Shown piece after piece: positions 30,421 to 61,022 of a stretch of DNA of 64,000 nucleotides. The translations under genes were made by a program, and so were the position numbers. This DNA is from a virus: the IMG/VR virus record IMGVR_UViG_3300022227_000002, positions 20,088 through 84,087 of that record. One strand, 5' to 3'. A model generated the notes under the pieces. It had not been told where the DNA came from and ran no database searches. It saw nothing but the letters and a program-made list of their open reading frames with translations. Each line of letters starts with the position of its first letter. The first letter of the stretch is position 1.

Positions 30421-30434
30421 TACCAAAATCCTAC

Positions 30435-30463: not shown

Positions 30464-30477
30464 CGCAAAGAAAACGT

Positions 30478-35705: not shown

Positions 35706-35877
35706 GTGTATAGTGACAAAGGGTAAAAAGGAAGTGGTGTGGCATTATAGTCTACCATATAAAATGATATTAGAAGAAGTTGATGAACACTACAAAGAAG
35801 GTGCTGATGCAGTAGAATTAGAAATGATTACGCAACAAGAGTTTGATGATCTTTTACCAAAGGAAGAAGATGTATAA
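35686..35877 (+). CDS. Small acidic hypothetical protein
   Basis: 63 aa, AAGGA SD, overlaps both flanking radical SAM genes. Confidence 0.5.
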   Translation: MKLDNYKCIVTKGKKEVVWHYSLPYKMILEEVDEHYKEGADAVELEMITQQEFDDLLPKEEDV

Positions 35878-40112: not shown

Positions 40113-41022
40113 AGTAGAACATTTATATGAAGATGTACGACAAAGTACTAAAATAGAATGGAACATAGGTAAAAGATGTAACTATGATTGCAGTTATTGT
40201 CCTGCAGAAATTCATGATAATTTTAGTGAACATACTGATATTGAAATACTTAAAAATACTGTAGATATTATTTCTAAAATGAATAAACCTAGAATAAGTT
40301 TTACAGGAGGTGAACCTTGTGTGCATCCAAAATTTACAGAACTTTTAGAATATGCAAAACCAAAAGTTACATGGATAAATGTAACCACTAACGGTACCAG
40401 AACAGCCGAGTATTACCAAAATCTTTTGGACAATTATCTTAACCATATTGTGTTTAGTTTACACTTCGAATATGACTGGAATAAAGTTGTAGAAACAATA
40501 ATAAGGGCAGTTAACAGCTCAGTTAATAAGAATGCTCTTGTACACGTAATGATGCTTCCAGGCTCGTTAAATGACGTGCAAGACGCTTGTAGACGCCTTT
40601 TAAATGGTAATATAAAGTATAGTTTGCGTCCAATTCGGTGGACCAAAAAGCATGATGATTTTGAAGATATGAATCGGTATAGCGAAGAAGAAATAAAGTT
40701 TTTGAAAATCCAAAATCATAATCCACCACATAATACTTTGGTAGACAAATCCAAAACTTGTAATGTAAATGATATGTTAATTTTGAAAACTAATAAATTT
40801 AAAGGATGGCTTTGTAATGCAGGTTTAGAAAGTTTAATGATTAATTGGGATGGTGATGTACATAGAGCAACTTGTAGAGTAGGAGGAAGTATAGGTAACA
40901 TTTATAATGGTACGTTTGAAATTCCAAAAGATCCTATTGTGTGTACAAGAGAATGGTGTACGTGTGCCGCGGATATAAATTTAACAAAAATAAAAAATGA
41001 AAATACACAAAATAACTTATAA
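40075..41022 (+). CDS. Radical SAM enzyme (W-x5-CNYxCSYC type, paralog 2; probable start 40105)
   Basis: EWNIGKRCNYDCSYCP, FTGGEP, TTNGTR; C-terminal GWLCNAG...RATC...CTREWCTCAAD. Confidence 0.85.
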   Translation: MKKLFRSLLHMYRVEHLYEDVRQSTKIEWNIGKRCNYDCSYCPAEIHDNFSEHTDIEILKNTVDIISKMNKPRISFTGGEPCVHPKFTELLEYAKPKVTWINVTTNGTRTAEYYQNLLDNYLNHIVFSLHFEYDWNKVVETIIRAVNSSVNKNALVHVMMLPGSLNDVQDACRRLLNGNIKYSLRPIRWTKKHDDFEDMNRYSEEEIKFLKIQNHNPPHNTLVDKSKTCNVNDMLILKTNKFKGWLCNAGLESLMINWDGDVHRATCRVGGSIGNIYNGTFEIPKDPIVCTREWCTCAADINLTKIKNENTQNNL

Positions 41023-41977
41023 ATTTCCTGAATTAAACAATGTTTTACAAATTGAATGGACTTTAGGTAATACTTGCAATTATAATTGTTCATATTGTTT
41101 ACCTATATTACATGATAATTCTTTTCCTTGGATTAATTTAGAAAAAAGTAAAAAATTTATAGACAAATTACATAATCATTATACTGATATGGGTATTACA
41201 CATTTTATTTGGAAGTTTGGTGGAGGTGAACCTACTCTTTATAAAGATTTTGCAAAACTATGTGAATATATTAATCAAAAAGAAAATAATTTAATAATAC
41301 CTATGACAAATGGTAGTAGAAAAATGGATTGGTGGAAAGATAATTATAAAAATTTTTTTGCAGTGCATTTTAGTATTCATCCAGAATTTACAAAACCAGA
41401 ACATATTAGAGATGTATGTGACTTTTTAATAGAAAATAAAGTAGATAATATTTGTCATATAATGATGAAACCCGATGAATGGTCTAAATGTATGGATATA
41501 ATAGATGTATTAAAAAATAGCAACAGAACTGAATGGGGGATTCAAGCTAAACCATTACATCAAGTTTGGGACACCGATACTGTAAGTGAAAGAGACTTAT
41601 ATCCTTATACAGAAGAACAAAAACAGATATTTAAAGGTACAATTAGAGCTCAAGAAAGAGTTAATGAAAAAATAGATACTAGATTTAATAGAGATATGTA
41701 TATGGTAGAAGATGATCAAACATATGACTTTGATCCATATTGGACAGTAGCAAATGATATTGTTGATTGGCGTGGTTATACTTGTAATGCTGGTATAAAC
41801 AGAATTTATATTAATTATGACAAAAGAATGTATTTAGGAGCAGGTTGCAGAGTTTTATCTGAAGGTTTTACAGGTAAAAAATATGATGAAGATTTTAATT
41901 TTCCAACAACTAGTGTTATTTGTAATCAAGAAAGGTGTGTATGTATAGCGGACATTCAGGTGCCAAAAACAAAATAG
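40997..41977 (+). CDS. Radical SAM enzyme (W-x5-CNYxCSYC type, paralog 3)
   Basis: EWTLGNTCNYNCSYCL, FGGGEPTL, MTNGSR; C-terminal GYTCNAG...GAGC...CNQERCVCIAD. Confidence 0.85.
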   Translation: MKIHKITYKFPELNNVLQIEWTLGNTCNYNCSYCLPILHDNSFPWINLEKSKKFIDKLHNHYTDMGITHFIWKFGGGEPTLYKDFAKLCEYINQKENNLIIPMTNGSRKMDWWKDNYKNFFAVHFSIHPEFTKPEHIRDVCDFLIENKVDNICHIMMKPDEWSKCMDIIDVLKNSNRTEWGIQAKPLHQVWDTDTVSERDLYPYTEEQKQIFKGTIRAQERVNEKIDTRFNRDMYMVEDDQTYDFDPYWTVANDIVDWRGYTCNAGINRIYINYDKRMYLGAGCRVLSEGFTGKKYDEDFNFPTTSVICNQERCVCIADIQVPKTK

Positions 41978-42636
41978 GTTTCTTCGGAGACAGTTTTATT
42001 GCTCACCCTCTTAAAGATAATTGGATGGGTCGAATGGCAGATTCATTAGATGCAGAAATTGTAAATACAGGAATTAGTGGTTCAAGTTATTGGACTGCCG
42101 TTATGCATTTTACAAAAAACTTTCATAAATTTAAAGATTTAGATTATTGTGTATTTGCTTGGACTGATCCTTTTAGAATATATCATTCAAAAGGAGATTT
42201 TAGTCCACCTAGTGCTTATCAAGGTTCTAGTAAAAGACATAAAGCCGCTCAAATGTTTTTTGAAGAATTAGTAGAATGGAATAAAGAAAGATTAAATTTT
42301 CAGGCTGTTGCTTATTGGTTAGACAATGAATACTTGTCTAAAATGAAAGGTAAAATTTTACACTTATGGAGTTTTGGAGATACTAGAGTAGAACCTTGGA
42401 GTGACGCAGAACTAGATCAAATTAAGTATTTGCATACTTGGAAACACGGAATAGAAATAAGAAAACCTTTGTATTATATTAGTTGTAGAACAGATCCAAA
42501 AAGAGCTTGGTGCGAAGAAAATTTAAGATTTTTACAAAGTATATTTGCTTTTAGAGTTAATCATATGGGACCAGATGGTGACAATGAAGTTTTTAATCTT
42601 ATAAAAGATGTGATAACTCGGGAAAAGTGGATTTAG
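41935..42636 (+). CDS. SGNH/GDSL-like hydrolase or acyltransferase
   Basis: IGFFGDSF (block I), NTGISGSS (block II), C-terminal VNHMG (block V-like). Confidence 0.55.
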   Translation: MCMYSGHSGAKNKIGFFGDSFIAHPLKDNWMGRMADSLDAEIVNTGISGSSYWTAVMHFTKNFHKFKDLDYCVFAWTDPFRIYHSKGDFSPPSAYQGSSKRHKAAQMFFEELVEWNKERLNFQAVAYWLDNEYLSKMKGKILHLWSFGDTRVEPWSDAELDQIKYLHTWKHGIEIRKPLYYISCRTDPKRAWCEENLRFLQSIFAFRVNHMGPDGDNEVFNLIKDVITREKWI

Positions 42637-44017
42637 CAGATAATTTTCTTATACCATCTAGTTTAGTAACGTATTCTTTAAATCCTGGAAGTAGATGACT
42701 ATTATCTTTTTCATCCATATGATCCATTACAGCCTCCCAACGTTTCCAGCCATAAGGATTGTGTTTCCAATATTCATCATCTTGTCTGTAGTTTTTCCAT
42801 AACCATTCTTTAAATTCTGTATAACGTTCACGAACTTCTTGTTTATCCTCTTTAGGTAATATTTGAATACTTAAAAATGTAGGTATGTAAAGCAAGTGCA
42901 TATTAACTAATCCACCTCCCATTTGTGTACCGCCGGGTACAGTTCCTAAATTAAGTTTTTTAAATTTAGATTCTACTTTCCATTTCATAAAGTCTGGCAA
43001 GTGTTTTACATTAAAAATTTGTATAGCAGTTGCTAAACTTGTTTGTATATTGTCGGGAGTGTTGTCTAACATACGAAGATTCTTTTCTACGGTATCCCAG
43101 TTAGTTGGAAAACGTATATATTCATCTCGTTCATGACAAGCGTCCATGCTAATTGCAAATTTAACTTTCTTAAACTTGCTCCATAACTCAATTAAATCTT
43201 CGTCTACTAATATACCATTTGAATTATATCTTAATAAGATTTTATCTTGATATCCTTGTCGTACAATTTCTTCAATAAATGTTTTATGTTCTCTAATCAT
43301 TAAAGGTTCACCACCAGCAAAATAAACTTGTTTTAAATTAGGAATTTGTTTATTCATTTCTGCCCAAAATGTATCTTTTTCGTGCCACTTGTTATTAAAT
43401 TCTTGTTTACCCCAAGACATTTGTTTTCTAACTGTAGGTATTGTTAGTTGAGGCATAAGTCGTTGCCAATCTGCAACCCATTTAGAACTGTCATGAGGAG
43501 AACACATAACACACTTAATATTACAAGTATGGCCTAATCTTAAATCTAAATATCTTAATGTTTCAGGTACAGTTCCATCTTCTTGTGTTTGTTTTATTAA
43601 TTCAGGAATATCTACACCATCTTTGTGCCACGTACCCGTTTCCCAAATACGTTTACTAACTACTCCTACTTTTTCTTCATTGAAACATTTAGTACAACTA
43701 GCAGGTATTTTTCCAGCTAACATAGTTTTACGAACTGACTTCATATATTCATTGTTCCAAGCACTCATTGGTGTATCTTTTCCAAAGTTTGCTGGTGTGC
43801 CATCTTCTTTTTTAACAAGACCTACTTTGTGATCTTTTCCTGCTCCACTGGCGTTTGCACTACAACATAAACGCATATCTCCATTAGGGCGTGTAGCAAA
43901 GTGAATCCAAGGCAATACACAAAAAGTACAAGAACCACTAACTGATTCTATTTCTCTTTGCCATTTACCTAATTTAGAATCTTTAGGATTTAACCAATAT
44001 TCATTACTTTCAGTCAC
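42599..44017 (-). CDS. Radical SAM enzyme with N-terminal SPASM/twitch-like domain (paralog of 38847)
   Basis: CTFCVLPWIHFATRPNGDMRLCC...CTKC, then GHTCNIKCVMCSP, FAGGEPL, YNSNG, ISMDA. Confidence 0.85.
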   Translation of the reverse strand: MTESNEYWLNPKDSKLGKWQREIESVSGSCTFCVLPWIHFATRPNGDMRLCCSANASGAGKDHKVGLVKKEDGTPANFGKDTPMSAWNNEYMKSVRKTMLAGKIPASCTKCFNEEKVGVVSKRIWETGTWHKDGVDIPELIKQTQEDGTVPETLRYLDLRLGHTCNIKCVMCSPHDSSKWVADWQRLMPQLTIPTVRKQMSWGKQEFNNKWHEKDTFWAEMNKQIPNLKQVYFAGGEPLMIREHKTFIEEIVRQGYQDKILLRYNSNGILVDEDLIELWSKFKKVKFAISMDACHERDEYIRFPTNWDTVEKNLRMLDNTPDNIQTSLATAIQIFNVKHLPDFMKWKVESKFKKLNLGTVPGGTQMGGGLVNMHLLYIPTFLSIQILPKEDKQEVRERYTEFKEWLWKNYRQDDEYWKHNPYGWKRWEAVMDHMDEKDNSHLLPGFKEYVTKLDGIRKLSAKSTFPELSHLL

Positions 44018-44831
44018 TGTTATCTATTCCCCATTGTCTTTCTTTACACCAAAAACATTTACCACATACTGGAATGTCTTTACCTGGAACATATGTTTTA
44101 TAATCTAGGTTTCCAAATATTTCAGGATAAGTTTCCTTATCACCTTCGCAACTTCTTGTAAGATTAAACAGATTCATGATGCCTAATCTCTTATATTGAG
44201 ATACTATCCAATCTTTTTGTACGAAGGTGAAAGGATGACAAGCCACGCCATTCATGTGTGGCTTTATCAATCGATGTAGATTTTCAACAGTATCATTTGA
44301 TAATGTACTGTCTCTGTCCGTTAATCGGCCATCGAATTTTATTTCAGGATTTTTAGTAAGTCCACAAAACCATGCATCTAGATTATAATTATGACCTATA
44401 TATTCTGCGTGTGATCTTAACTCTATTTGATTACCGCTTTTTAATTTGCCATATTCATCAATAATGTTTGGACCTTTAGAACCCCATTCTAAATCAGGTG
44501 CAATAAAATTTGTATGTTCTATAAACTTTATATCTTTAAATGTTTCTTTAAACCAAGCAAATACTTGTTTAAAAATATGTTGTTGCCAAGGACGTGTTTT
44601 CCATAATCTAACATTATAAATTATGTGTATTTTGGTATAATAATTTTTACGTTTAATTAAATCGCATATAATATATGCCATTAAGGCACTATCACAGCCA
44701 CCACTAAGACTTATTCCTATATTTTTCCAGTTTGGTGACAATGGAAAATATACATCAGATATATCGTGGATTATATTTTGGTATTCACTATTCTCGTAGA
44801 GACTTTTTACTTTGTTATTCATAGGCATCAA
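44010..44831 (-). CDS. queC: QueC-like PP-loop ATPase (7-cyano-7-deazaguanine synthase family)
   Basis: N-terminal IGISLSGGCDS PP-loop and C-terminal TRSC...CGKCFWCKER zinc site, both QueC hallmarks. Confidence 0.6.
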   Translation of the reverse strand: MMPMNNKVKSLYENSEYQNIIHDISDVYFPLSPNWKNIGISLSGGCDSALMAYIICDLIKRKNYYTKIHIIYNVRLWKTRPWQQHIFKQVFAWFKETFKDIKFIEHTNFIAPDLEWGSKGPNIIDEYGKLKSGNQIELRSHAEYIGHNYNLDAWFCGLTKNPEIKFDGRLTDRDSTLSNDTVENLHRLIKPHMNGVACHPFTFVQKDWIVSQYKRLGIMNLFNLTRSCEGDKETYPEIFGNLDYKTYVPGKDIPVCGKCFWCKERQWGIDNSD

Positions 44832-44869
44832 ATAATACTTATCGTAATTAATCCTCAGGTTAATTCTTT

Positions 44870-45568
44870 ATGGTAAATATTGGTATGCTTACAAAGATGC
44901 TTACAAAGACTGGTATAACACATTCCTCTAAAGAAATATATAATTTGGTAAAACATTTTGGTCCTGGTAAAAACATTTTGAATAAACAAACAGGAGATTT
45001 CTTTTATGATGAGTGGGAGGTACTTCCAGAATACAAAGACACTAGTTTAGAAGGGTTACTATCTAAAATAGGAAAAGTAGGACAAGCAAGAGTAAATGTA
45101 TTGAAACCAGGTGAGTGTTTTTTTGCTCATGCTGATATAGATGATCGCTTTCATTTAGCATTAGATTCAGAATATAGTTTTTTAACAGATATAATTGGGG
45201 CAAAACTTTATTGTGTTGGAGACGATAATGTATATGAAATGGACGCAGGTAGATTACATTCTGCAAGTAATTATGGATATAAAAATAGATATCAATTAGT
45301 TATTAGAAAACTTTTAAATAGAATAGATTTACAAGAACCTGTAGTAGTAACTTGTATGGCTCTTCAACCTACACCATATAATTTAAGATATCTTTTTGAT
45401 TGTAGTTTTTCTTGTTTATTAAACAAATTTAATAAGCTAGGAGTAATGACTAATTTTCAAAAAATTAGTGATACGTCTATTAAGTTTGACGTTGAATATG
45501 AATTTGTACAAGAAGTATTAAAATTAAAAGAAACTTGTGGCTTTGGAGTGCTTATAAATTATGATTAA
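44870..45568 (+). CDS. 2OG-Fe(II) Asp/Asn beta-hydroxylase-fold oxygenase with extra C-terminal domain (probable start 44885 or 44897)
   Basis: RVNVLKPGECFFAHADIDDRFHLAL...MDAGRLHSASNYG...RYQLVIR: HxD...H triad and 2OG-binding Arg. Confidence 0.7.
   Translation: MVNIGMLTKMLTKTGITHSSKEIYNLVKHFGPGKNILNKQTGDFFYDEWEVLPEYKDTSLEGLLSKIGKVGQARVNVLKPGECFFAHADIDDRFHLALDSEYSFLTDIIGAKLYCVGDDNVYEMDAGRLHSASNYGYKNRYQLVIRKLLNRIDLQEPVVVTCMALQPTPYNLRYLFDCSFSCLLNKFNKLGVMTNFQKISDTSIKFDVEYEFVQEVLKLKETCGFGVLINYD
44885..44908 (+). repeat. 12-bp tandem duplication ATGCTTACAAAG x2 spanning the start codon
   Basis: Exact direct repeat at 44885-44896 and 44897-44908. Confidence 0.9.
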
Positions 45569-46172
45569 AATGAAAGACAAAGAGTGGGATCGTTTTTATA
45601 AACCAATAAATGCAGTTGCTAATGTTCTTTATGAACCTCTTATAAGCAAAGATAAGAAAGTATTTTGTATGAATTGGAATCCTAGTACTTACTTTGAAAA
45701 TAAATTTTTAAATAATGATTTAAGAGAATACTGGTTTTTACGTGAAATTAAATTTTTATTAAAATTAAGAGGCAAATCTTATATACCTGAAGTAATTGAT
45801 ATTGCATATGATGATAGACAAATATTTTTTAGATGGTATGATAATAAACTATTATCTACAGGAAATTGGCGAGAGCAAATTACAGAAATTAAAACTGATT
45901 TAGAAAATGAAGGTATTTTTAAAATAAATCTTTATCCTCATACTTGCTATGTTAATGATGATGGACAAATTCATATAATGGATGTGTATGGTTGTACAGA
46001 TATAGATTCAAAATGGATTAATACAGAATATTTAAAACCTCTTATGATGGATAATCCACATAAAAGATTTACAGAATCAATAACTGGTAATGATTGTGAT
46101 ACACATAAGTTGTATGCAATTACTATTCAATCAAATTACGCTAAATGGCCAAGAGATTTTTTAAATGCTTAA
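45561..46172 (+). CDS. Protein-kinase/APH-fold protein lacking the canonical catalytic Asp
   Basis: FLREIKFLLKL...YIPEVIDI (alphaC/beta4 pattern), KINLYPHT in place of HxDxxxxN, IMDVYG (DFG-like). Confidence 0.5.
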   Translation: MIKMKDKEWDRFYKPINAVANVLYEPLISKDKKVFCMNWNPSTYFENKFLNNDLREYWFLREIKFLLKLRGKSYIPEVIDIAYDDRQIFFRWYDNKLLSTGNWREQITEIKTDLENEGIFKINLYPHTCYVNDDGQIHIMDVYGCTDIDSKWINTEYLKPLMMDNPHKRFTESITGNDCDTHKLYAITIQSNYAKWPRDFLNA

Positions 46173-46218
46173 ATTTGTTGGAAATTGTAAAGATGTAATA
46201 GATGCAAGAAGGATATAA
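46165..46218 (+). CDS. 17-aa coupled micro-ORF MLKFVGNCKDVIDARRI (peptide or truncated gene remnant)
   Basis: ATG overlaps the upstream stop (ATGCTTAA) and its TAA overlaps the next ATG (TAATG). Confidence 0.35.
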   Translation: MLKFVGNCKDVIDARRI

Positions 46219-46901
46219 TGTTTATAGATTCAACAAAATATAGTTCCTGGGAAGAATTAAAAAACTTTCAAAAAAAAGTAATATTAGAATACCATAATGC
46301 TTTTACAACCGGTTCTAATTCTACAATTGGTTCTTGGGATAAGATAACTAGGGCTCCTATAAAAGAAGGAATTGGGAACACTGAAGCATTAAAAGAAGGA
46401 TCAACAAGAAACCCTGCTCCTTATATAATACAAGAATATTTAGAAAAAGTAGGTGATGATGATACGCATAGTAAAGATTTATATTTTAACGGTGAATTTC
46501 AAAAAGGATATAATGAAAGTGATATTTTTAAAGAATGTATAGACTATGCAGTAAAAAATCTTAAAGGATTATATAAAATTTCAATTGACGGGCTACCACC
46601 TGATGGAATAGCTTTACCACGTACTATACAGCATCAGTCAAATCATTTTCAAAAAGGTCCTTGTTATTCTATGTTATTGAGTATTGATATTCCATCTGAA
46701 GACATTATTAAATGTGGAATTAAAGTAGGAATGTCTCGAAAAGAATTTAATCATGGACACATTTTAACAATTGATCCGACAATGACTTATGAAACATGGT
46801 ATCAAGGATTAGGTCATACTTATATAGAAGGTGCCAATCCTAGTTCTTATAGAATTTTAGTAATCGTAGAAGTTTTAAAGAAGGAATTTAATTTAAATTA
46901 A
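46218..46901 (+). CDS. Degenerate Asp/Asn beta-hydroxylase-fold (DSBH) protein without iron-binding histidines
   Basis: LLSIDIP...CGIKVG...RKEFNHGHILTIDPTMTYETWYQ...RILVIVEV follows the AspH pattern HLGLxIP..CxIRVG..WxEGKVLIFDDSFEHEVW..RLIFIVDV, but the His ligands are replaced. Confidence 0.5.
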   Translation: MFIDSTKYSSWEELKNFQKKVILEYHNAFTTGSNSTIGSWDKITRAPIKEGIGNTEALKEGSTRNPAPYIIQEYLEKVGDDDTHSKDLYFNGEFQKGYNESDIFKECIDYAVKNLKGLYKISIDGLPPDGIALPRTIQHQSNHFQKGPCYSMLLSIDIPSEDIIKCGIKVGMSRKEFNHGHILTIDPTMTYETWYQGLGHTYIEGANPSSYRILVIVEVLKKEFNLN

Positions 46902-46938
46902 GTTTCTTTTTGAATTCACCAGTAACTTCAACTTGCAT
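46888..46938 (-). CDS. 16-aa micro-ORF MQVEVTGEFKKKLNLN with strong SD and its own late-promoter motif
   Basis: AAGGAG 6 nt before ATG (46950-46945) and TAAATA on the - strand near 47002-47007. Confidence 0.4.
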   Translation of the reverse strand: MQVEVTGEFKKKLNLN

Positions 46939-47008
46939 GATAGTCTCCTTTAGAGCGTTGCGTTGTTTGCTTCTGATTTACTATATTAATACGTGTACTA
47001 GTATTTAG

Positions 47009-47548
47009 TTAAGCAGATGATCCTGGATCTGGATAAGGCGCAATTCTAAGAGTCATTAAGTATTCAGGTTGTTCTATACACCACATAACTACTTTTGCTA
47101 TATAGTCTGGATCCATTTTGTGTCCAGAACCAAAAGAAGCTACCCTAGGCGTATCTACAAACCCAGGTTTGATGTTTATTATTCTACAATTACCTTTGCT
47201 ATTTTGTAATTGTTCACATGCATGATCTAACGCACATTTTTCGGTACTATAAGGCCAAATTGTGTTTTTAGTAACATCAGGACTTAAAGAACTAATTGAT
47301 ACTATTTGTTTTTTTTCTTCTTTCCATTTTTGCCATAAATGATACAATACCCAAACTTGTGCGTATTTGTCATGTGCATTATTAATAAAGACATCACAGT
47401 CTAATGCTTTTTCTATAATAGTATGAGGATCATTAATATCGTAACCATTACTTCGAGAAAATCCTATCCATTCGTGATTATTGTTATCGCAATAATTAGC
47501 TAAAGATAAGCCTATACCACTAGTGTGTCCTGTTATTCCAAATTTCAT
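47009..47548 (-). CDS. Short-chain dehydrogenase/reductase (compact SDR)
   Basis: FGITGHTSGIG, DVFINNA, IVSISS, YSTEK (YxxxK), NIKPGFVDT. Confidence 0.8.
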   Translation of the reverse strand: MKFGITGHTSGIGLSLANYCDNNNHEWIGFSRSNGYDINDPHTIIEKALDCDVFINNAHDKYAQVWVLYHLWQKWKEEKKQIVSISSLSPDVTKNTIWPYSTEKCALDHACEQLQNSKGNCRIINIKPGFVDTPRVASFGSGHKMDPDYIAKVVMWCIEQPEYLMTLRIAPYPDPGSSA

Positions 47549-47606
47549 TTATATCTAAATGTTCGTCGAGAGTGATATATTGTTGACCACCAATTCCTTT
47601 AATCAT
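47520..47606 (-). pseudogene. 28-aa ORF MIKGIGGQQYITLDEHLDINEIWNNRTH running out of frame into the SDR start (possible N-terminal remnant)
   Basis: TAAATA-N5-ATG start context; overlaps the SDR ATG in a different frame. Confidence 0.3.
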
Positions 47607-47608
47607 GC

Positions 47609-47630
47609 CAATATTTAGTGTTAAATATTG
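47609..47630. promoter_or_regulatory. Back-to-back divergent TAAATA motifs forming a perfect 9-bp inverted repeat
   Basis: CAATATTTA-gtgt-TAAATATTG between divergently oriented genes. Confidence 0.6.
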
Positions 47631-48245
47631 ATGCCGGAAAAATTCATGGATTATAAAATAATACCTTACGAAGAAAATTTAGATTTAGCTAACTTTTACC
47701 AAAATGCTAAACAAAAAGGATTCGCAAATAATAGTTCAAAAAAAATATTAATAGACTCTATTAGTAAAGAACGTGAATGGCAAGTTTGGTTTTTACAATA
47801 TAAAAATAAAATTGTAGGGTCTACTGCCGCACATTCTTTTGATGAAATGGGAGAAAACAGTTATAGAATACTAGCAAGAACTTGCGTGTTCACAGATGAA
47901 TTGCCTATTAATAATGTAAGGACTAAAAAGCAAATTGTAGAACATCAAAGTATTACACCTCAATTTTTTATGCCTGCTTGTATTGAATGGGTAGGACTTC
48001 AAGGTAAACCTTATGGGGGATATTCATTAGATAATAAAAAACTTTATATAACAACAAATGAAAATGAAGAAGGGTCACAAAAATTAGTGCATAAAATATG
48101 GGCACCTATGTTAGCAAAATCTGGTTGCTTAGAATACATTAAAGATTTTAATTATAGAAATACTCCTCAGAGTGTTTGGCGTTTAAATCCTAGGATATTT
48201 TTATCTCAATTATATAAACAAAGATTATGGAGATATAATGATTAA
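47628..48245 (+). CDS. GNAT-like acyltransferase (probable start MDYK near 47646)
   Basis: WFLQYKNKIVGSTAAHSF...YRILARTCV beta-strand pattern typical of GNAT folds. Confidence 0.4.
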   Translation: MMPEKFMDYKIIPYEENLDLANFYQNAKQKGFANNSSKKILIDSISKEREWQVWFLQYKNKIVGSTAAHSFDEMGENSYRILARTCVFTDELPINNVRTKKQIVEHQSITPQFFMPACIEWVGLQGKPYGGYSLDNKKLYITTNENEEGSQKLVHKIWAPMLAKSGCLEYIKDFNYRNTPQSVWRLNPRIFLSQLYKQRLWRYND

Positions 48246-48930
48246 CAACGATTACGAATATTATTATAATCAAGTTCCGGGTAAAGGACAATGTAGAAAT
48301 AATTTAGTTTACACTAGTTTAATAAACAGACATAAAACTGAATTTGTACAGTGGTTTTTTAATGATACATTTTATCATAATGGACATAACCAAGTAATGG
48401 ATACAGAATTAATGAATGAAAAATGGTTAAGAGAAACGAATATGTTATTAAAAATGCATAGTAAGTATCCTCAACATATACCATCAATACTTGATATAGA
48501 TTATGCAAATAAAAAAATTCATTTAGGTATAGAAGGTGTAGATTTTTGGGAACAAAGTCATAATAAAACATATGAAGATGTATTGCCTAATTGGAAAGAA
48601 CAAATGTTAGAAATAATTCAAGCACATAAAGATATTGGTATGTACAAGTATAGTCTTCATCCTAGCAGTTATTTTGTAGTAGAAGGTAAACTTAAATCTA
48701 TTAATTATTTTTTTAGTTATATGGTTCACGAACCTAAAATTACTGTTAAAGATCATTTAAGTCATATATCAAATGACAGAAAAGTAATAGTATATGAACA
48801 AATGAAAGCCATGAATATAAACGTTAATACTCCAGTATCCTTTGATAAAGCTCAACTATTATGCTTTGAAAGTTTTCGTAATAACTATCCTGATGACTTT
48901 ATTAATCAAGCAATAAGTATCTATAAATAA
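48238..48930 (+). CDS. Protein-kinase/APH-fold protein, paralog of 45561, lacking the catalytic Asp
   Basis: KWLRETNMLLKM...HIPSILDIDY, KYSLHPSSYFV in the catalytic-loop position, KSINYF in the DFG position. Confidence 0.5.
   Translation: MINNDYEYYYNQVPGKGQCRNNLVYTSLINRHKTEFVQWFFNDTFYHNGHNQVMDTELMNEKWLRETNMLLKMHSKYPQHIPSILDIDYANKKIHLGIEGVDFWEQSHNKTYEDVLPNWKEQMLEIIQAHKDIGMYKYSLHPSSYFVVEGKLKSINYFFSYMVHEPKITVKDHLSHISNDRKVIVYEQMKAMNINVNTPVSFDKAQLLCFESFRNNYPDDFINQAISIYK
48922..48929 (+). promoter_or_regulatory. Full T4 late promoter consensus TATAAATA, 5 nt before the ATG of the Tes-like radical SAM gene
   Basis: cTATAAATAattatATG. Confidence 0.65.
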
Positions 48931-48934
48931 TTAT

Positions 48935-50086
48935 ATGAACGATACAAAGACATTAAGTTTATGTCATATTTGCTATAAACATATACCAGCTGAACGTATT
49001 ACTAAAAATAATGCAGTTTATCTTATTAAAACGTGCCCTGAACACGGTCGTATGGAGTATAAGGTAGAGCATGATGTTGAATTTTACAATAATTTAGAAT
49101 ATGATAGAGAAGGTTATAGTATACCGCAAGGTATCCTGATTGAAGTAACCGATCGTTGTAATTTAAATTGTCCTCATTGTTATCATGAACCAGATAATAA
49201 AGTAGTAGACAGGTCTATTAATTCAATTTTAAAACAAATAGAAGAAAATGTACATCCTAGAACAGGTGCTGTAATACTTGCAGGTGCAGAACCTACAGTA
49301 CGTAAAGATTTACCAGAATTAGTTGAAGCTATTTGTAAACAAATAAAAGATTTAAACAGAGATCACCAGGATGTTTGTATTTTAACTAATGGTGTTAAAC
49401 TTTCTGATAGAGCTTGGGTTAAAAGAATTGCAAAAGCAGGTGCTCGAATGGTTATGATAGGATTAAATCATCCTAGTTACCAAGGCAAAACAGTACATAG
49501 AAAACAATTAGAAGGTATTGATAATTGTATTGCAGAAGGTATATTTGTTTATTACATAGGATATACATTAGGAAGTTTGGATCAAATGGAAGATGTATTA
49601 GAAGAAATTCAAAGTTTAGGATACAAAAGTTGGCAATATAGAATTAGAGCAGGTTCGGATATAGGTAGAAGTCCTGATGAACCAAGATTCTTTTTAAGTG
49701 ACCACGTAAAACTTATTAAAAGTATTTGTGATAAAAAAGGTTGGAGTTGGGAAAAGAAACCTGCTGATGATAATTTATATCATTACATGGTTAATATTAA
49801 TGGTATTAGTCATAGAATTATTCAATGGAGTGATCCTAAAACTATAGATATGGAACAATTAATGTGTGGTCCTTGGTGTAATTTTGTTCCATTAAAACCT
49901 GTAACTAACTTTTTACATCAAATAATGTTGCGTGATGCTAACGTTAATAATGGAAAACCGTTATTTGATACTGTACCTGAACGTTATATGTTTAAACCAG
50001 ACACTGTGGATTATAAAGTAACTGAATGGACGTATAAAAGTTGGGATGATTATAAAATTAAACAATCTAACCTAGTTAATCTGTAA
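48935..50086 (+). CDS. Radical SAM enzyme of the Tes/GDGT-MAS (MJ0619, COG1964)-like family with N-terminal rubredoxin-type site
   Basis: KTLSLCHICYKHIPA...KTCPEHG, IEVTDRCNLNCPHC, AGAEPTVRKDLPELV and LTNGVKL closely parallel the recalled MJ0619 motifs KTLSLCPIC..KTCPEHG, IDVTNRCNLNCPIC, AGGEPTVRSDLPELI and ATNGIKL. Confidence 0.7.
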   Translation: MNDTKTLSLCHICYKHIPAERITKNNAVYLIKTCPEHGRMEYKVEHDVEFYNNLEYDREGYSIPQGILIEVTDRCNLNCPHCYHEPDNKVVDRSINSILKQIEENVHPRTGAVILAGAEPTVRKDLPELVEAICKQIKDLNRDHQDVCILTNGVKLSDRAWVKRIAKAGARMVMIGLNHPSYQGKTVHRKQLEGIDNCIAEGIFVYYIGYTLGSLDQMEDVLEEIQSLGYKSWQYRIRAGSDIGRSPDEPRFFLSDHVKLIKSICDKKGWSWEKKPADDNLYHYMVNINGISHRIIQWSDPKTIDMEQLMCGPWCNFVPLKPVTNFLHQIMLRDANVNNGKPLFDTVPERYMFKPDTVDYKVTEWTYKSWDDYKIKQSNLVNL

Positions 50087-50558: not shown

Positions 50559-51683
50559 TTAATTTAAATCGACCCAACTTGCGCCAGTGTACCCTTGGAA
50601 TTTTGTACCTGTTGTATTAAACACTACCATACCAGCCGCCGGTGTTGCTATTGCGGCATCTCTTGCGGCGTTGTCGGCATATACTTTAAGTTGAACTGGA
50701 CCATCTACATCTAATGTACCAGCAGGACCAGTTGGATTTCCTTTGTTAATTCCTAATCTACCTAAGTAATCAAATGCTAATATTTTTTCTGTAGAACCAT
50801 TGTCTGGTGTAGTAACCATTATAATTTTACCTGGAACTTGTCCAGCACCTACAGTAGCATTTGCATCATTTTCTACTGCATATGATATAAAAGCAGATCG
50901 TCTATAAGCAGTACCATCGTGACCATTTGCAAGATTAGTGAATAATATATCTCCTTTTTGTACTACTTGTGGAGATAATAAAGAATTTCTTGAAGAGAGA
51001 TATTCAATACAATTTGAAGTTGTAGCAGTAACTCCAGCTGTAAAAATTTTATAAGCTGATAAAGTTGTAGTAGGACTGTATTGTTCTATTCCAATACCTG
51101 TTGCAGAATCAGTTCTGCTTACTTTTAATACTGTTTGGGCATTAATTAACTCAAGTGAATTTTCATTCAATACAATGTCACCGTTAGTAATAACATTTGC
51201 ATTACCATCTATTCTTAAAGTACTATCGTTAGCAAATACAGAACCATGTATATCACCGGTTACTGCACCTGTAACGTTACCAATAACTGGACCAGTATGT
51301 GTACCACCAGCACTATTACCAGTTAAATCACCTGTAACGTTTCCTGAAAGATTTCCGTTAAATGTTGTTGCAGATATTGAAGAAAAACCAGCACCAACTC
51401 CACCTGTTATTGAAGCTGTACCGTCATTAAATTTTACGCCGAAAATTTCTTTCCATAATTTAGCGGCTGTACCTATGTCTCTAGTGTTAGTTGTATCTGG
51501 AATGAAGTCTGCCGCAACGTTATTGTATTGTGATGCGACAGTAGTATCTACTGCATTACCACCTACTGTTGAAGCATCTCCTACATATAACTTTTTAGTA
51601 TCTGTAGTATAGATTATTTCACCTTCAGCGGGTGTAATACCGCTTCTTTGAGTGTCTGTTCCTCTTCGTACTTGAAAAGCCAT
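50559..51683 (-). CDS. Fibre/adhesin protein with Mtd_N-like (major tropism determinant N-terminal) domain
   Basis: MAFQVRRGT...PAEGEIIYTTDTKKLYVGD is the Mtd_N signature; ends in the fibre-tip-type module PAAGMVVFNTTGTKFQGYTGASWVDL; AAGGAG SD and two TAAATA motifs upstream. Confidence 0.7.
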   Translation of the reverse strand: MAFQVRRGTDTQRSGITPAEGEIIYTTDTKKLYVGDASTVGGNAVDTTVASQYNNVAADFIPDTTNTRDIGTAAKLWKEIFGVKFNDGTASITGGVGAGFSSISATTFNGNLSGNVTGDLTGNSAGGTHTGPVIGNVTGAVTGDIHGSVFANDSTLRIDGNANVITNGDIVLNENSLELINAQTVLKVSRTDSATGIGIEQYSPTTTLSAYKIFTAGVTATTSNCIEYLSSRNSLLSPQVVQKGDILFTNLANGHDGTAYRRSAFISYAVENDANATVGAGQVPGKIIMVTTPDNGSTEKILAFDYLGRLGINKGNPTGPAGTLDVDGPVQLKVYADNAARDAAIATPAAGMVVFNTTGTKFQGYTGASWVDLN

Positions 51684-53023: not shown

Positions 53024-53311
53024 TTAATGTTTAGGGAAGTGAGGGCAACTCAAATTGAATATGCTCATCTCTTTTGGATCTTCAAACCCTACCAAAATAG
53101 AATGAATAACTTGATCTGACTTATCAATCTTAATGTGATTACCAATATAATATCTGCTTTTTAGATTATCCGAAATCCAATTTTCTACAATTTTTAGATA
53201 CTCGTGACCTTTCTCAGGTAACTCTTGAAACACCATACCTTTTGGTTTTTTGGTAAATTTTCTAGCGTCTAAAAAGTTTAATGGATTTGGTATATTGGTT
53301 TTTGGAAACAT
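53024..53311 (-). CDS. Hypothetical protein
   Basis: 95 aa, coupled to the VWA gene (TAATG). Confidence 0.55.
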   Translation of the reverse strand: MFPKTNIPNPLNFLDARKFTKKPKGMVFQELPEKGHEYLKIVENWISDNLKSRYYIGNHIKIDKSDQVIHSILVGFEDPKEMSIFNLSCPHFPKH

Positions 53312-54606
53312 TATGCGTCGTAATGAGATGTAATACCAAAAGGTGCTTCTTTATTTTTATCATGATGTTCATGAAGAATCCATATTGTATCGCAATAATC
53401 AGGATCTCCCCAATCATCCCAAGGATAACCATCTGTGAATACTATTAATTTTTTAGGAACAATGTCATTGTCTTTCATATGTCTCCAATTTGCCATAAAG
53501 TCTGTACCACCGCCACCTTTAGCATCATAGTCTTCTAGACTATTATCATTAGCAGTAAAATCTTGTTCATTATAAACTTTAGTATCAAAAGACCAAATTT
53601 TAATATTATAATCTTGATATTGATCCATAATGTTTTGAATTTCTCCTAAGAAATCTTTTAATTGTCTTTCTTCAATAGAACCTGATGTGTCTATTGCTAC
53701 ACAAATATCTATTGTTTTTTGATAGTCTGTTGCAGGTAAAATTATACCTGAATGCCAAGCCTTTCTAGAAGGTCTAGCAAAAGTATAGTCGTTTCTTATA
53801 ACACTTTGTATTTGTTGTTGTAATACTTGTTTCCAATCCATTTTAGGATTAGTAAACTGTTTAATCATTCTTTTAACTTCTTCAGGTAAATTATCTGGAC
53901 CAGCCGCCTGTGCAGATTGCATTATACCTTCTTTAATTTCGTTTTTAATTTTTTCTTGTTCGTCTTTGCTTATAATAGGTTGTTTACTTTTACCATTTTT
54001 ATCTTTGTCTTTTTTACCTGCTCCACTTTCAGGACCTTTTTCCCAATCAATGTGATCATCTAATAGTTTTCCTAATTTGCTTATATCAATTTTTTTAGCA
54101 TTTTTAAATAGTTCGTCATATACTTGTTCTGATGACCAACCGTCGTATTTGTGATCTTGAAATATTTGAATGTCTTTAGGTTTTTCTCCTATTCCTTCTC
54201 TAACTAAAGTATTATTAACGAGATAGTCTGCCGCAATATTATAGAGCATTCTATTTCTATTTTCGTTTCTTTGTAAGTGATTAAAAACACAATGAAGTAT
54301 TTCGTGTCCTATTACAAATTCAATTTCTTTAGTGCTTAATTTGTGAAAAAATTCTGTATTATAATATAAATGTTTACCATCAGTAGCCGCCGTAGGACAC
54401 CACTCATCACACTCTTGGATTTTTAATCTAGTAGCCATATTACCAAAGAAAGGATGTCTTAATAGTAAACCAACTCTTGCTACAATAATTTTATCTAAAA
54501 CTTCAGTTTTTATTTGTCTATACTCGTCGTCTGTACGTTTTATAACTGGTGGTTCTTTAATTTTTTTAATTTTAGTTGTTGTTTTTATTTTAGTTTTTAA
54601 CTGCAT
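53311..54606 (-). CDS. HExxH metallopeptidase-like domain plus VWA domain protein (DUF2201-like), MoxR partner
   Basis: PTAATDG, GHEILHCVFNH (HExxH), MIDAS DTSGS, GGGGTDF, VFTDG. Confidence 0.85.
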   Translation of the reverse strand: MQLKTKIKTTTKIKKIKEPPVIKRTDDEYRQIKTEVLDKIIVARVGLLLRHPFFGNMATRLKIQECDEWCPTAATDGKHLYYNTEFFHKLSTKEIEFVIGHEILHCVFNHLQRNENRNRMLYNIAADYLVNNTLVREGIGEKPKDIQIFQDHKYDGWSSEQVYDELFKNAKKIDISKLGKLLDDHIDWEKGPESGAGKKDKDKNGKSKQPIISKDEQEKIKNEIKEGIMQSAQAAGPDNLPEEVKRMIKQFTNPKMDWKQVLQQQIQSVIRNDYTFARPSRKAWHSGIILPATDYQKTIDICVAIDTSGSIEERQLKDFLGEIQNIMDQYQDYNIKIWSFDTKVYNEQDFTANDNSLEDYDAKGGGGTDFMANWRHMKDNDIVPKKLIVFTDGYPWDDWGDPDYCDTIWILHEHHDKNKEAPFGITSHYDA

Positions 54607-54620
54607 AATTCCTTTTATGT

Positions 54621-54650
54621 GTTATAGGGTACCCGAAAGCACCCTATAAC
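54621..54650 (-). promoter_or_regulatory. Strong RNA hairpin with UUCG loop between the MoxR and VWA genes
   Basis: GTTATAGGGT...ACCCTATAAC perfect 10-bp stem; the - strand RNA extends it with G-U/C-G/U-G pairs closing a UUCG loop; followed by the AAGGA SD, not by a U-run. Confidence 0.6.
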
Positions 54651-54657
54651 GAAAACA

Positions 54658-55776
54658 CTAGTCGGCGCTTTGAGCGGCGGTTATGTACTTGCCGTATTTT
54701 TCATGGAACTCATCGAAAACTTTGATAGCGTCTGGATCAAACGGTAACTGATATTGTGTAAGAGCTAATTTAATACCCATTACAACTAATTCAGTATCAA
54801 AATTGTCCATCATAAATCTAAGAAATTTTCCAACTTTGTCGTTAAACTTCTTATCTTTTTTATCGCAAGCCTCTTTAAGTTCATAACATAAAGAAACCGT
54901 TAGGGAGTACATTGCACTGATTTCTTTACTTTTCAACTTCTCTACTTTACCTTCTAAAATATCAGAAGGGTTAGGAAGTTGTGATGCCACCTTACGGTGA
55001 GCCATAAACTTAACTGCAAGTCCTTCGCCTACTGCACCGCTGACTAAATCAGTCACAGTGTTTTCATCTAAATCATCTGATAAGAGTTCACTTACAAATG
55101 ACCAAGATCTCGGAGTAGCAAAAGACCTACTTGAAGATTTCGGTTCAAAGTCGTATAGGTCTTTTTTGCTAAAAGTCAAATAACCAATTACATCTTTATG
55201 GATGTTGTTGTCTACTGCCCATTCAAACCAATCATCAAAAACAGGTTTCATTTCTAAGTGAATGAATCTATTTGCTAATGGTGCCGGCATTCTATAAGTG
55301 ATACCTTTATCTGCTTCTCTATTACCCGCCGCCACTATAACAACGTTTTCTGGTAATTCGTAAGTACCTACTTTTCTATTCAATATTAATTGGTAAGCCG
55401 CCGCTTGAACACTTGGTGCCGCGGAATTCATTTCGTCTAAAAATAGAATAATGTTTTTATATTTTTTAGACATTTTTTGATCTGGTAATTCTGATGGAGA
55501 TGCCCATTCCATAGATTTTGAATTACTATTAAAGTATGGTATACCTTTAATATCTGTTGGTTCCCATAAACTTAATCTTATATCAATAACATGAGCATTG
55601 ATAGTTTTTGCAATCTGACGAACAACGTCTGATTTACCAATACCCGGACCGCCCCATAAAAAGATTGGTCTTTTGATTTTTAAGGCGTGTAATATACTTG
55701 CCTTTGCTTTATTTGGTGATAATTGTCTAGTAGCTAAACTACTATCTGCTGATGTGTCTTTGCCTTTACGTGCCAT
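54658..55776 (-). CDS. MoxR/AAA_5-type AAA+ ATPase
   Basis: Walker A GGPGIGKS, Walker B LFLDEMN, VAAGNR sensor, LANRF Arg finger, TPRSW. Confidence 0.9.
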   Translation of the reverse strand: MARKGKDTSADSSLATRQLSPNKAKASILHALKIKRPIFLWGGPGIGKSDVVRQIAKTINAHVIDIRLSLWEPTDIKGIPYFNSNSKSMEWASPSELPDQKMSKKYKNIILFLDEMNSAAPSVQAAAYQLILNRKVGTYELPENVVIVAAGNREADKGITYRMPAPLANRFIHLEMKPVFDDWFEWAVDNNIHKDVIGYLTFSKKDLYDFEPKSSSRSFATPRSWSFVSELLSDDLDENTVTDLVSGAVGEGLAVKFMAHRKVASQLPNPSDILEGKVEKLKSKEISAMYSLTVSLCYELKEACDKKDKKFNDKVGKFLRFMMDNFDTELVVMGIKLALTQYQLPFDPDAIKVFDEFHEKYGKYITAAQSAD

Positions 55777-60335: not shown

Positions 60336-61013
60336 CTAAATGTTATGTCCTTTCATACTAAAGCAGATATCATAAAATTCTTTTTTAAGTGGTGCATGAG
60401 TATCAAAAGCGCCTAACATAATTGCAGTAGTCATATCATTGTCAGATTCTTTTACACCACGTTGTGTTAAACAATGGTGTTTTGCTTTAACTACTACTGC
60501 TACATTAGGTGTTTTAGCATATTTTCTTAATGCTTCAGAAATTTGTGTAGTCATTTCTTCTTGTATCTGTGGTCTTTCTGCAATATGATGTACGATCCTA
60601 TTAAATTTGCTTAAACCTATAACTTCATCTTCAGGTAATACTCCTACCCAACAATTTCCTACAATGTTTTGAAAATGGTGAGCACAGGTTGATCTAACAC
60701 TAATTGGACCACTAGTGTATAAACTTTTATATCCCATATTCGGAAATGATGTAATTTTAGGTAATGAATTATATCTACCTGAATATATTTCATTAACATA
60801 CATTTTTGCAACACGTTTTGCAGTTTCTTTTGTGTTATGATCATTTTCAGTATCAATTACTAATGCTTCTAAAACTTCTTCAAATGCTTCTTCTACTTCT
60901 GTTTCTAATTCTTTTAATTCACCTTTCTCCAAATACTTGGCGATATTGTCGTTTGCATTAAAACGTACCTTTTTGTCTATTAATCTTTGTTTGATCTTTT
61001 CTGATGTTCTCAT
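60336..61013 (-). CDS. folE: GTP cyclohydrolase I
   Basis: ETAKRVAKMY, STCAHHF, VIGLSKFNRIV, RPQIQEEMT, HHCLTQRGV. Confidence 0.95.
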   Translation of the reverse strand: MRTSEKIKQRLIDKKVRFNANDNIAKYLEKGELKELETEVEEAFEEVLEALVIDTENDHNTKETAKRVAKMYVNEIYSGRYNSLPKITSFPNMGYKSLYTSGPISVRSTCAHHFQNIVGNCWVGVLPEDEVIGLSKFNRIVHHIAERPQIQEEMTTQISEALRKYAKTPNVAVVVKAKHHCLTQRGVKESDNDMTTAIMLGAFDTHAPLKKEFYDICFSMKGHNI

Positions 61014-61022
61014 ATTGTTACA

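Follow-up and report, generated by a model that had tools for sequence, protein, structure and literature searches.

Can a phage-encoded relative of an archaeal lipid-joining enzyme still work on lipids, and if not, what does it make? The question is raised by a radical SAM gene in the 64-kb stretch of viral DNA analysed here (the window), which belongs to a cosmopolitan, widespread marine jumbo phage. The initial annotation described the product as a stripped-down homologue of tetraether lipid synthase (Tes; GDGT-MAS, MJ0619) behind a late promoter, possibly performing a different radical chemistry on a lipid, a lipid-linked glycan or a pterin. Tes itself was identified only recently, and its mechanism requires an auxiliary cluster on which a lipid radical is kept. 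In a literature search, no paper describing a phage homologue of Tes turned up.

The reading frame is open (Table 1), and every motif quoted in the initial annotation is present: IEVTDRCNLNCPHC at residues 69-82, AGAEPTVRKDLPEL at residues 116-129, TNGVKL at residues 151-156, and WSDPKTIDMEQLMC at residues 298-311. Pfam matches the protein to Zn_ribbon_HMPTM (PF23545; E 9.6e-15, 54 bits) and Radical_SAM (PF04055; E 1.2e-21, 78 bits against a cut-off of 29.5 bits), and with these E-values the assignment as a radical SAM gene is not due to chance. The superfamily features are a CX3CX2C motif, a GGE-like AGAEP motif, and six beta/alpha units in the AF2 model (pLDDT 91). Pfam returned no SPASM domain, and the protein has no membrane segment. 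The N-terminus is indeed of the rubredoxin type (C10-H-I-C13 and C34-P-E-H37), and its four ligands are kept in 109-110 of 110 family members. The cluster cysteines C75, C79, and C82 are invariant in all 110. Besides these seven positions, only C198 is listed among the Cys and His residues conserved at 96% or more in this set, and the set has no conserved group of cysteines past residue 198.

Table 1. Features discussed in the text, by position in the 64-kb window.
Feature	Position	Strand	Remarks
Collar-domain tail-fibre gene	23740-25746		flanks the island
Partner 2, GNAT-like fold, 205 aa	47628-48245	+	predicted-structure match only
Partner 1, kinase-like fold, 230 aa	48238-48930	+	without the catalytic Asp, Asn, and DFG Asp
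TATAAATA, candidate T4-type late promoter box	48922-48929	+	overlaps stop codon of upstream gene; 5 nt to ATG
Radical SAM gene, 383 aa	48935-50086	+	zinc ribbon, radical SAM core, short C-terminal domain
Rubredoxin-like zinc ribbon, residues 5-43	48947-49063	+	ligands C10, C13, C34, H37; Pfam Zn_ribbon_HMPTM
CX3CX2C motif, C75, C79, C82	49157-49180	+	predicted single SAM-cleaving [4Fe-4S] cluster
Vestige of Tes C-terminal cluster motif, residues 296-315	49820-49879	+	I296, C311, C315; MAFFT alignment with Tes L174 and TrsS
Mtd_N tail-fibre gene	50559-51683		flanks the island
folE	60336-61013	-	

The homology to MJ0619/GDGT-MAS is borne out, as this enzyme is the best PDB match both by sequence (E 2.7e-24) and by structure. 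A profile search of PDB sequences also places GDGT-MAS first (E 1.1e-33), with only residues 3-203 aligned; the C-terminal half could be aligned to it only through structure and MAFFT. By structure comparison, GDGT-MAS (PDB 7TOM/7TOL) is the top match, with Z 28, 27% identity, and 327 residues aligned over residues 2-340, and the next match is MoaA at Z 17. The zinc-ribbon spacing C-X2-C-X20-C-X2-H is the same in both proteins (C9X2C12X20C33X2H36 in GDGT-MAS; PMC9433317). The radical SAM core is kept through beta-strand 6, including EPTVRxDLPE, TNG, and IxNC, and the C-terminal part retains the hairpin and a motif resembling FQD..D.E....C. In a MAFFT alignment with one bona fide Tes and three TrsS proteins, WSDPKTIDMEQLMC runs parallel to the Tes motif FQDNYNFD..ERxxRC, as the initial annotation noted.

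The phage protein nevertheless differs from Tes, beginning with its length of 383 aa against about 500 aa. Its single CX3CX2C pairs in MAFFT with the second, radical SAM CX3CX2C of Tes and TrsS. The N-terminal auxiliary cluster of Tes, [4Fe-4S]N (CX3CX2C plus His, with an insert of ~30 aa), is deleted, and the same four-protein alignment agrees with the initial annotation that the CPxxCGLC motif is absent. The C-terminal ligands are reduced, also as described: the Tes insert of ~90 residues that contains CxHxxC and sits between the hairpin and the FQD motif is deleted, the labile Met439 of the C-terminal cluster (3 Cys plus Met) is replaced by Ile296, and C311 and C315 are kept in 83% and 72% of the 110 family members. 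Helices beyond residue 268 of the AF2 model are short only. Tyr459 is strictly conserved in Tes and lies near the substrate (PMC9433317); the stretch around it ('VHY...', past the aligned Cys-Gly) has no counterpart in any phage sequence of the MAFFT alignment. The NCBIfam model for Tes (NF045702) gives the phage protein 84.4 bits, over profile positions 89-199 only, against a cut-off of 450 bits. A true Tes from a Methanohalobium MAG, which served as the alignment reference, scores 748 bits with the same profile. Membership of Tes proper is not upheld by this score, by the loss of both auxiliary clusters, Met439, and Tyr459, or by the separate position in the tree. Judged on sequence, the phage protein is not a Tes and belongs to a phage-specific sister family.

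In Tes, the C-terminal cluster keeps the first lipid radical during cleavage of a second SAM, and the helical C-terminal insert adjoins the lipid pockets (PMC9433317, PMC13459092; mechanism and conserved residues are taken from these papers). Tes is further characterised by a long hydrophobic tunnel and by a second lipid pocket built from amphipathic helices. With no auxiliary clusters and no such insert, the Tes mechanism is impossible for the phage enzyme. In most members, binding of a cluster by C311, C315, and C198 together is still conceivable. The leading idea of the initial annotation was that a lipid is kept as substrate; the target of the radical chemistry would then be an acyl or isoprenoid chain, or else a lipid-linked glycan in the host's envelope. 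The closest characterised relative does act on lipid tails, and protein language model look-alikes of the kinase-fold partner include the Kdo/WaaP lipopolysaccharide kinase families, although only as a lead. In P22-like phages, the region beside the tail genes often carries surface-conversion genes. Still, a lipid substrate is very unlikely, given that the radical-carrying cluster and the ~90-residue insert are missing, the invariant positions specific to the phage family hold Arg, His, and Asp instead of hydrophobic residues, a membrane segment is lacking, the Tes score is far under its cut-off, and TrsS is at least as close as Tes. The suggestion of a different radical chemistry is reasonable. 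Of its targets, a lipid tail is unlikely once the helical insert and the cluster are gone. The pterin idea draws on an annotation that was rejected in the GDGT-MAS structure paper (PMC9433317) and on folE, which is present in the window as stated but unlinked to the radical SAM gene.

TrsS is the best family match of the phage protein (NCBIfam NF045646), slightly closer than Tes at 102 bits, and its cut-off of 490 bits is not reached. The zinc ribbon and the core are common to both, whereas in TrsS a pair of CX3CX2C motifs is spaced 25 residues apart and the C-terminus is rich in Cys, features that the phage protein does not have. Cellular TrsS proteins have the two CX3CX2C motifs and score 494-642 bits, and the closest cellular relatives among the matches recovered (Desulfobacterales, Clostridia, and Syntrophus) score as TrsS. 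In the literature search, TrsS appears only as a selenoprotein without known function. The best 80 cellular matches are 25-34% identical to the phage protein; by regular expression, 77 have two CX3CX2C motifs and 3 have one. A quick tree separates 75 single-cluster rows from the Tes/TrsS/Tes-like clade (SH-aLRT 95), with a support of 98 for the clade of the query. This tree is in effect unrooted, as its three outgroups, radical SAM proteins from the window, sit on very long branches. Their placement is scattered, so the quick tree does not settle loss versus gain of the clusters. The phage family shares ancestry with the Tes/TrsS group, and its chemistry is probably non-lipid.

The close family occurs in 266 or more contigs of IMG/VR, of which 80 were kept for analysis (44-97% identity); none of the cellular genomes recovered carries it. 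An exact 3-kb stretch is present in sequencing runs from at least 12 studies. Among 50,697 cultured-phage records, no match was found by tblastn with the 383-aa protein or by megablast with 12 kb around the gene. Foldseek against the BFVD viral structures returned generic radical SAM proteins only (E about 1e-6 and worse), and a cluster look-up of distant relatives gave no informative protein name. Since nothing comparable is seen in cultured phages, what the enzyme makes is probably a phage molecule or modification that has not been described before.

Unlike Tes, the protein is phage-borne and linked to a kinase-fold and a GNAT-like partner, with the three genes abutting or overlapping. Across the best 80 of at least 266 viral loci, partner 1 is next to the radical SAM gene in 71 and partner 2 is present in 58, in three different gene orders; several of the 80 have the radical SAM gene without recognisable partners. 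Partner 1 (AF2 pLDDT 91) resembles kinases in all 50 Foldseek matches listed, with KYSLHPSSY as its catalytic loop and INYF at the DFG position. The ESM Atlas model of partner 2 matches GNAT clusters with TM 0.54-0.62, and no sequence-level support for GNAT was found in Pfam or the PDB, including by profile against PDB sequences. In four distant relatives, radical SAM and GNAT domains are fused, and another lies two genes upstream of a GNAT gene. BLASTP and hhalign detected no homology of partner 2 to the fused GNAT domains, so the link is at the level of the fold only. The extra C-terminal domain of a 546-aa relative was also compared with the partners and corresponds to neither. One relative (P0143) lies in a DNA-replication module without either partner, beside ThyX, MazG, helicase, and ssDNA-binding genes, so a common function across the wider clade is not a given.

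The module is part of an island of seven radical SAM genes with tail-fibre genes on both sides. Pfam and PHROGs gave no family of known function for the island genes at 29533-34735, 36843-38857, 41935-42636, and 46218-46901; three weak PHROGs matches at 31632-32504 and 37466-38854 are all to families of unknown function, and these searches did not confirm any glycosyltransferase there. The island encodes three radical SAM enzymes with SPASM domains and one oxygenase resembling Asp/Arg hydroxylases, classes that are typical of peptide and protein modification. The substrate could be a tail-fibre or other virion protein or a small ribosomal peptide, with the kinase-fold protein as the recognition subunit and the GNAT-like protein acylating an amine. 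Degenerate kinase folds often bind proteins, and anSME, SuiB, SkfB, and ChlB match the model at Z 14, but the nucleotide and nucleoside enzymes MoaA, BlsE, and viperin match equally well or better. The enzyme is without a SPASM or twitch cluster, no RiPP-recognition domain was detected, and no conserved short ORF goes with the three-gene module. The flanking fibre genes fit a protein target, as does an unrelated phage with a P22-type coat in which a relative directly follows a Collar-domain fibre gene. However, the fibre gene is not adjacent in the large locus subgroup L124-L139. On this evidence, protein or peptide modification is possible but unlikely.

MoaA (GTP 3',8-cyclase), BlsE, and viperin share with the phage protein a partial TIM barrel with a C-terminal extension (Z 14-17), and viperin is also a one-cluster enzyme, with a polar nucleotide as its substrate. 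They differ in having no zinc ribbon and are only 15-16% identical to the phage protein; MoaA has a C-terminal auxiliary cluster as well. None of the NCBIfam models for these three families reaches its cut-off on the phage protein. A nucleotide or nucleic acid could be the substrate, in a modified-base pathway, as a counter-measure against antiviral nucleotides, or by Elp3-like radical acyl transfer from acyl-CoA with the GNAT partner. Elp3, a radical SAM plus KAT/GNAT tRNA carboxymethyl-uridine synthase in which the radical SAM domain comes before the GNAT domain, is an analogy only for the pairing seen here, as there is no homology past the superfamily and the two phage proteins are separate. 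The distant fusions, N-terminal radical SAM followed by C-terminal GNAT, mirror this order, although they match no Elp3-specific Pfam domains and the phage GNAT-like partner has no detectable relation to their GNAT domains. The next structural neighbours, MoaA and viperin, act on nucleoside triphosphates, and P0143 has its place among replication genes. HIT and phosphoribosyltransferase genes accompany folE in the window, but this run lies on the opposite strand at a distance of 10 kb and is not carried along with the radical SAM gene. No nucleic-acid-binding domain was seen either, leaving a nucleotide or nucleic acid substrate improbable.

In the explanation proposed here, a radical enzyme with one cluster modifies a polar substrate together with its kinase-fold and GNAT-like partners; the chances of this being correct are roughly even. 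The sequence data show the domain architecture, the missing ligands, the restriction to phages, and the synteny, whereas what follows on reaction, substrate, and partner roles is inferred. The enzyme would be soluble, with two metal sites only: a [4Fe-4S] cluster at C75/C79/C82 and a mononuclear Cys3His site at C10/C13/C34/H37. A single 5'-deoxyadenosyl radical would take one hydrogen from the polar substrate, and the substrate radical would then rearrange, eliminate, or epimerise. The polar residues invariant in the family (R236, R238, R245, H179, H188, D278, D279, N280, H283, R294, R333, and D334) map to strand ends and the hairpin of the AF2 model. They outline a putative polar pocket, deduced from conservation and the secondary structure of the model and not from a measured cavity, in which invariant Arg, His, and Asp at the C-terminal ends of the barrel strands and on the C-terminal hairpin would hold the substrate. 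The rubredoxin-like site may pass an electron. The degenerate kinase-fold protein is likely to be a substrate-holding or adaptor subunit, and the GNAT-like protein is likely to carry out acyl-CoA-dependent acyl transfer to the product. As to the class of substrate, we tentatively suggest, at less than even odds, a nucleotide-activated or amino-bearing precursor, sugar-like or nucleoside-like, that is made or used by the variable island near the tail-fibre genes. The position beside the fibre genes may, however, mean no more than that insertions are tolerated at this site. A more daring version has only a slim chance of being right. The three proteins would form a novel type of machine for radical acyl transfer or tailoring, confined to uncultured marine jumbo phages and their relatives, possibly an Elp3-like system split into separate proteins. 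Its radical enzyme would activate acyl-CoA or a partner-held acceptor, so that a virion fibre component, a surface glycan, or a nucleotide gains a C-C or C-N bond, with the rubredoxin-like domain as the sole auxiliary redox site.

A large natural family that keeps the rubredoxin domain and core of Tes without either auxiliary cluster lends itself to direct comparison with Tes. Such a comparison can help to separate the contributions of the clusters and of the rubredoxin site, and to define the chemistry that the scaffold can perform by itself. The gene also marks a conserved three-gene module in a seven-radical-SAM island beside tail-fibre genes. Finding Tes-like genes in viral metagenomes is therefore no evidence that viruses make membrane-spanning lipids.

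Contigs from RNA libraries match pieces of the gene, exactly at 49482-49632 in one study and with 3 differences at 49339-49598 in another; such contigs carry no information on expression level, strand, or transcript start, and could stem from carried-over DNA. The TATAAATA-N5-ATG arrangement reported upstream of the gene is present as sequence. This copy of TATAAATA is the only one on either strand of the window, where 20.5 +/- 4 are expected. The TAAATA core is under-represented about five-fold and, where present, often lies just upstream of gene starts. A late promoter is plausible, given a unique motif that is strongly avoided in the rest of the window. A T4-type box lies at about -10, however, and the 5-nt spacing would place such a start on the start codon, giving a leaderless mRNA.

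The resemblance to the archaeal tetraether-lipid synthase GDGT-MAS (Tes) that the initial annotation had pointed out for the radical SAM (rSAM) protein is real homology across nearly the whole protein, because it is borne out by sequence matches in the PDB and by a structural match over model residues 2-340. Among PDB sequences, only GDGT-MAS (7TOL/7TOM) matches strongly, at E 2.7e-24 when the single sequence is searched and at E 1.1e-33 when the family profile is used. With 60 family members as input, AF2 gave a model (pLDDT 91) that aligns to 7TOM with Z 28 over 327 residues (model 2-340, chain 1-483) at 27% identity. MoaA ranks second at Z 17, the general radical SAM background lies at Z 13-16, and Foldseek gives the same ranking, GDGT-MAS followed by MoaA. 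Every motif quoted in the initial annotation is found in the translated ORF. The zinc ribbon, C10-X2-C13-X20-C34-X2-H37, has spacing identical to the rubredoxin-like iron site of GDGT-MAS, C9X2C12X20C33X2H36 (PMC9433317).

Features of the rSAM protein and of the surrounding window
Feature	Position	Strand	Basis or remark
rSAM gene, 383 residues	48935-50086	+	ORF
HMPTM/MJ0619-type N-terminal zinc ribbon	residues 5-43		Pfam, E 9.6e-15
Radical SAM core	residues 69-223		Pfam, E 1.2e-21
Kinase-like partner	48238-48930	+	directly upstream of rSAM gene
GNAT-like partner	47628-48245	+	next gene upstream
Second kinase-fold gene copy	45561-46172		island
Radical SAM gene starts	34713, 35843, 38847, 40075, 40997, 42599 (minus strand), 48935		Pfam
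SPASM domain before core	38847-40112 (whole gene)	+	island
SPASM domain before core	42599-44017 (whole gene)	-	island
Weak QueC-like PP-loop protein			island
Asp/Arg-hydroxylase-like protein			island
Short-chain dehydrogenase			island
GTP cyclohydrolase I (folE), HIT-domain protein, phosphoribosyltransferase	60336-63304	-	minus-strand run
folE	60336-61013	-	confirmed

Calling the protein a "minimal Tes homologue" is correct in terms of homology but wrong as to family membership or lipid function. The protein scores 84 bits against the NCBIfam Tes model (cut-off 450) and 102 bits against that of TrsS, a radical SAM (seleno)protein (cut-off 490). Ten phage sequences were aligned with a bona fide Tes (748 bits; Methanohalobium MAG, L174) and several TrsS above cut-off. 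Compared with Tes and TrsS, the phage proteins lack the ~30-residue insert bearing the first CX3CX2C, which is the [4Fe-4S]N cluster site, and the ~90-residue C-terminal insert whose start holds the CxHxxC ligands. C198, in an IxNC motif, is common to the window's protein, Tes and TrsS. Across 110 full-length members, conserved Cys/His ligand candidates are confined to the zinc ribbon (four residues), the radical SAM motif (three cysteines) and C198; C311 is retained in 83% and C315 in 72%. The metal sites of the window's protein are one SAM-cleaving cluster and one Cys3His site. At the C-terminus, the motif parallel with Tes drawn in the initial annotation is confirmed, with IQWSD.KTID.E.L-C311-G-PW-C315 pairing with MHFQDNYNFDIERIQR-C-G...PF-C, but Ile296 takes the place of the labile Met, and the phage proteins have a gap where Tes carries its strictly conserved Tyr. 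In Tes, the first lipid radical is stored through a C-S bond to the [4Fe-4S]C cluster (PMC9433317, PMC13459092). Judging from the alignment, this cluster cannot form in the phage protein, and the Tes coupling mechanism would for that reason be unavailable to it. A lipid as the substrate is thus highly improbable, the homology to Tes notwithstanding.

Within the Tes/TrsS lineage, the gene falls in a large single-cluster branch that is restricted to phages and uncharacterised, and it has two conserved partners. Searching 1.84 billion representative proteins with a profile gave 238 clusters at E < 1e-30. Nearly all of the best 150 are of the single-cluster type, with the zinc ribbon near residue 10 and one CX3CX2C near residue 75; a second CX3CX2C occurs in only two. 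The best 80 prokaryote relatives (one-genome-per-species contigs) are just 25-34% identical; by regular expression, 77 carry two CX3CX2C motifs 25 residues apart and Cys-rich tails, and three carry one motif. The subset scanned with NCBIfam is TrsS or TrsS/Tes-like. In a quick maximum-likelihood tree, all 75 single-cluster rows lie outside the Tes/TrsS/Tes-like clade (SH-aLRT 95), and the clade that contains the window's protein has support 98; the root of the tree is unresolved, so cluster loss versus gain can only be inferred. Among AlphaFold DB clusters, a few cellular proteins, all uncharacterised, share the short architecture (e.g., a 316-aa entry, TM 0.81 by hit). IMG/VR holds 266 stretches encoding relatives, 80 of which were kept (44-97% identical), and none were found in cultured-phage records or BFVD. 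Loci L149, L150, L151, L160 and L167 carry two or three tandem paralogues (three in L151), 40-48% identical to the window's protein. P0268, a 671-aa distant relative, has a LAGLIDADG homing-endonuclease or intein-like insert between zinc ribbon and core, reminiscent of the intein-containing Tes variant modelled separately by NCBIfam.

The kinase-like partner is present in 71 of 80 loci and the GNAT-like partner in 58. At least three arrangements occur: GNAT-like/kinase-like/rSAM, kinase-like/GNAT-like/rSAM, and both partners divergently transcribed. Linkage that persists through rearrangement points to joint action of the three proteins. The kinase-like partner is a compact protein-kinase-like domain (pLDDT 91), and all 50 Foldseek matches listed are kinases. 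KYSLHPSSY stands in its catalytic loop and INYF at the DFG position; the catalytic Asp, the Asn and the metal-binding Asp have thus all given way to other residues, which are invariant or nearly so in the family. A second copy, of weak similarity, lies in the island; its identity is 23-32% to most related loci and 46-98% to the closest phages, and so this degenerate fold has been duplicated. The GNAT-like partner matches GNAT acyltransferase clusters solely through an ESM Atlas model (TM 0.54-0.62). Independently of this, four distant single-cluster relatives (P0212, P0246, P0253 and P0262; ~469-488 aa) carry a fused C-terminal GNAT acetyltransferase domain (Pfam), and a further one is followed, two genes on, by a GNAT gene. 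No homology of the fused GNATs to the GNAT-like partner was detected, so what recurs is the pairing of rSAM and GNAT folds and not the linkage of one particular gene. The fusions share the domain order of Elp3 without Elp3 homology, and a nucleic-acid or nucleotide-pool role, an Elp3-like reaction included, appears improbable.

The phage-invariant residues that differ from Tes are all polar (H179, Y182, Q183, H188, R236, R238, D278, D279, N280, H283, R294, R333 and D334). In the AF2 model they map to the C-terminal hairpin and to the ends of the barrel strands on their C-terminal side, the location of the active site in radical SAM enzymes. We propose that the enzyme would take a single hydrogen from a polar substrate, in the manner of viperin, DesII or BlsE-type reactions, that the GNAT-like partner would transfer an acyl group afterwards or in a coupled step, and that the dead kinase fold may serve as an adaptor. 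This general picture has roughly an even chance of being correct. A nucleotide- or sugar-like substrate is suggested tentatively; a protein or peptide is conceivable, though rather unlikely. A pterin had also been put forward because folE is in the window. The gene is indeed there, but 10 kb from the rSAM gene and on the opposite strand, and the paper on the GDGT-MAS structure (PMC9433317) abandoned the annotation of MJ0619 as a pterin methylase. The ORF at 61023-61631 in the folE run, previously called queE, has no Pfam match at E 0.001.

A late promoter had been proposed at TATAAATA (48922-48929). This is the sole copy on both strands of the 64 kb, where 20.5 +/- 4 are expected, and the TAAATA core occurs 47 times (both strands) against ~216 expected from base composition, figures tempered by the partial exclusion of TAA-containing words from coding frames. 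Several TAAATA copies (4368, 23098, 28038, 29511, 47622 and 48924) lie 5-27 nt upstream of plus-strand gene starts. This depletion and placement fit a candidate transcription signal avoided elsewhere. The case is weakened by overlap of the box with the upstream stop codon and by its distance of only 5 nt from the ATG, at which spacing the message from a T4-like start site would be leaderless. In two studies, RNA-library contigs match the rSAM gene over short pieces, with longer and deeper contigs over the neighbouring fibre gene; they are compatible with expression and prove neither transcription nor timing.

The source record is 104.7 kb long (~30% complete by CheckV). Its baseplate-hub and AAA-ATPase genes are nearest to PA5oct-type and other jumbo myoviruses (36-49% identity), and the exact 3-kb stretch surrounding the rSAM gene is carried by 14 marine or seawater runs from at least 12 studies. 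The rSAM gene is the last of a variable island with seven Pfam-confirmed radical SAM genes (34713-50086), two of which have the SPASM domain before the core, not behind it. The island is flanked by a Collar-domain fibre gene and an Mtd_N fibre gene; the glycosyltransferases reported earlier were not confirmed within it. On a sediment contig of 373 kb, a relative with 62% identity neighbours an aminotransferase, a Trp-halogenase-like gene, AdoMet decarboxylase and more radical SAM genes. In a phage with a P22-type coat (L178:6222-8521), the structural module ends with a Collar-domain tail-fibre gene and, directly 3' of it, a 506-aa relative; in a further phage the neighbours of the relative are ThyX, MazG and replication genes. 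One ORF of 4890 codons spans 8428-23100, upstream of the fibre genes. Beside the island, a MoxR-like AAA ATPase (81% median identity across related loci) and a DUF2201 metallopeptidase/VWA protein (53311-55776) form a pair conserved in most related phages.
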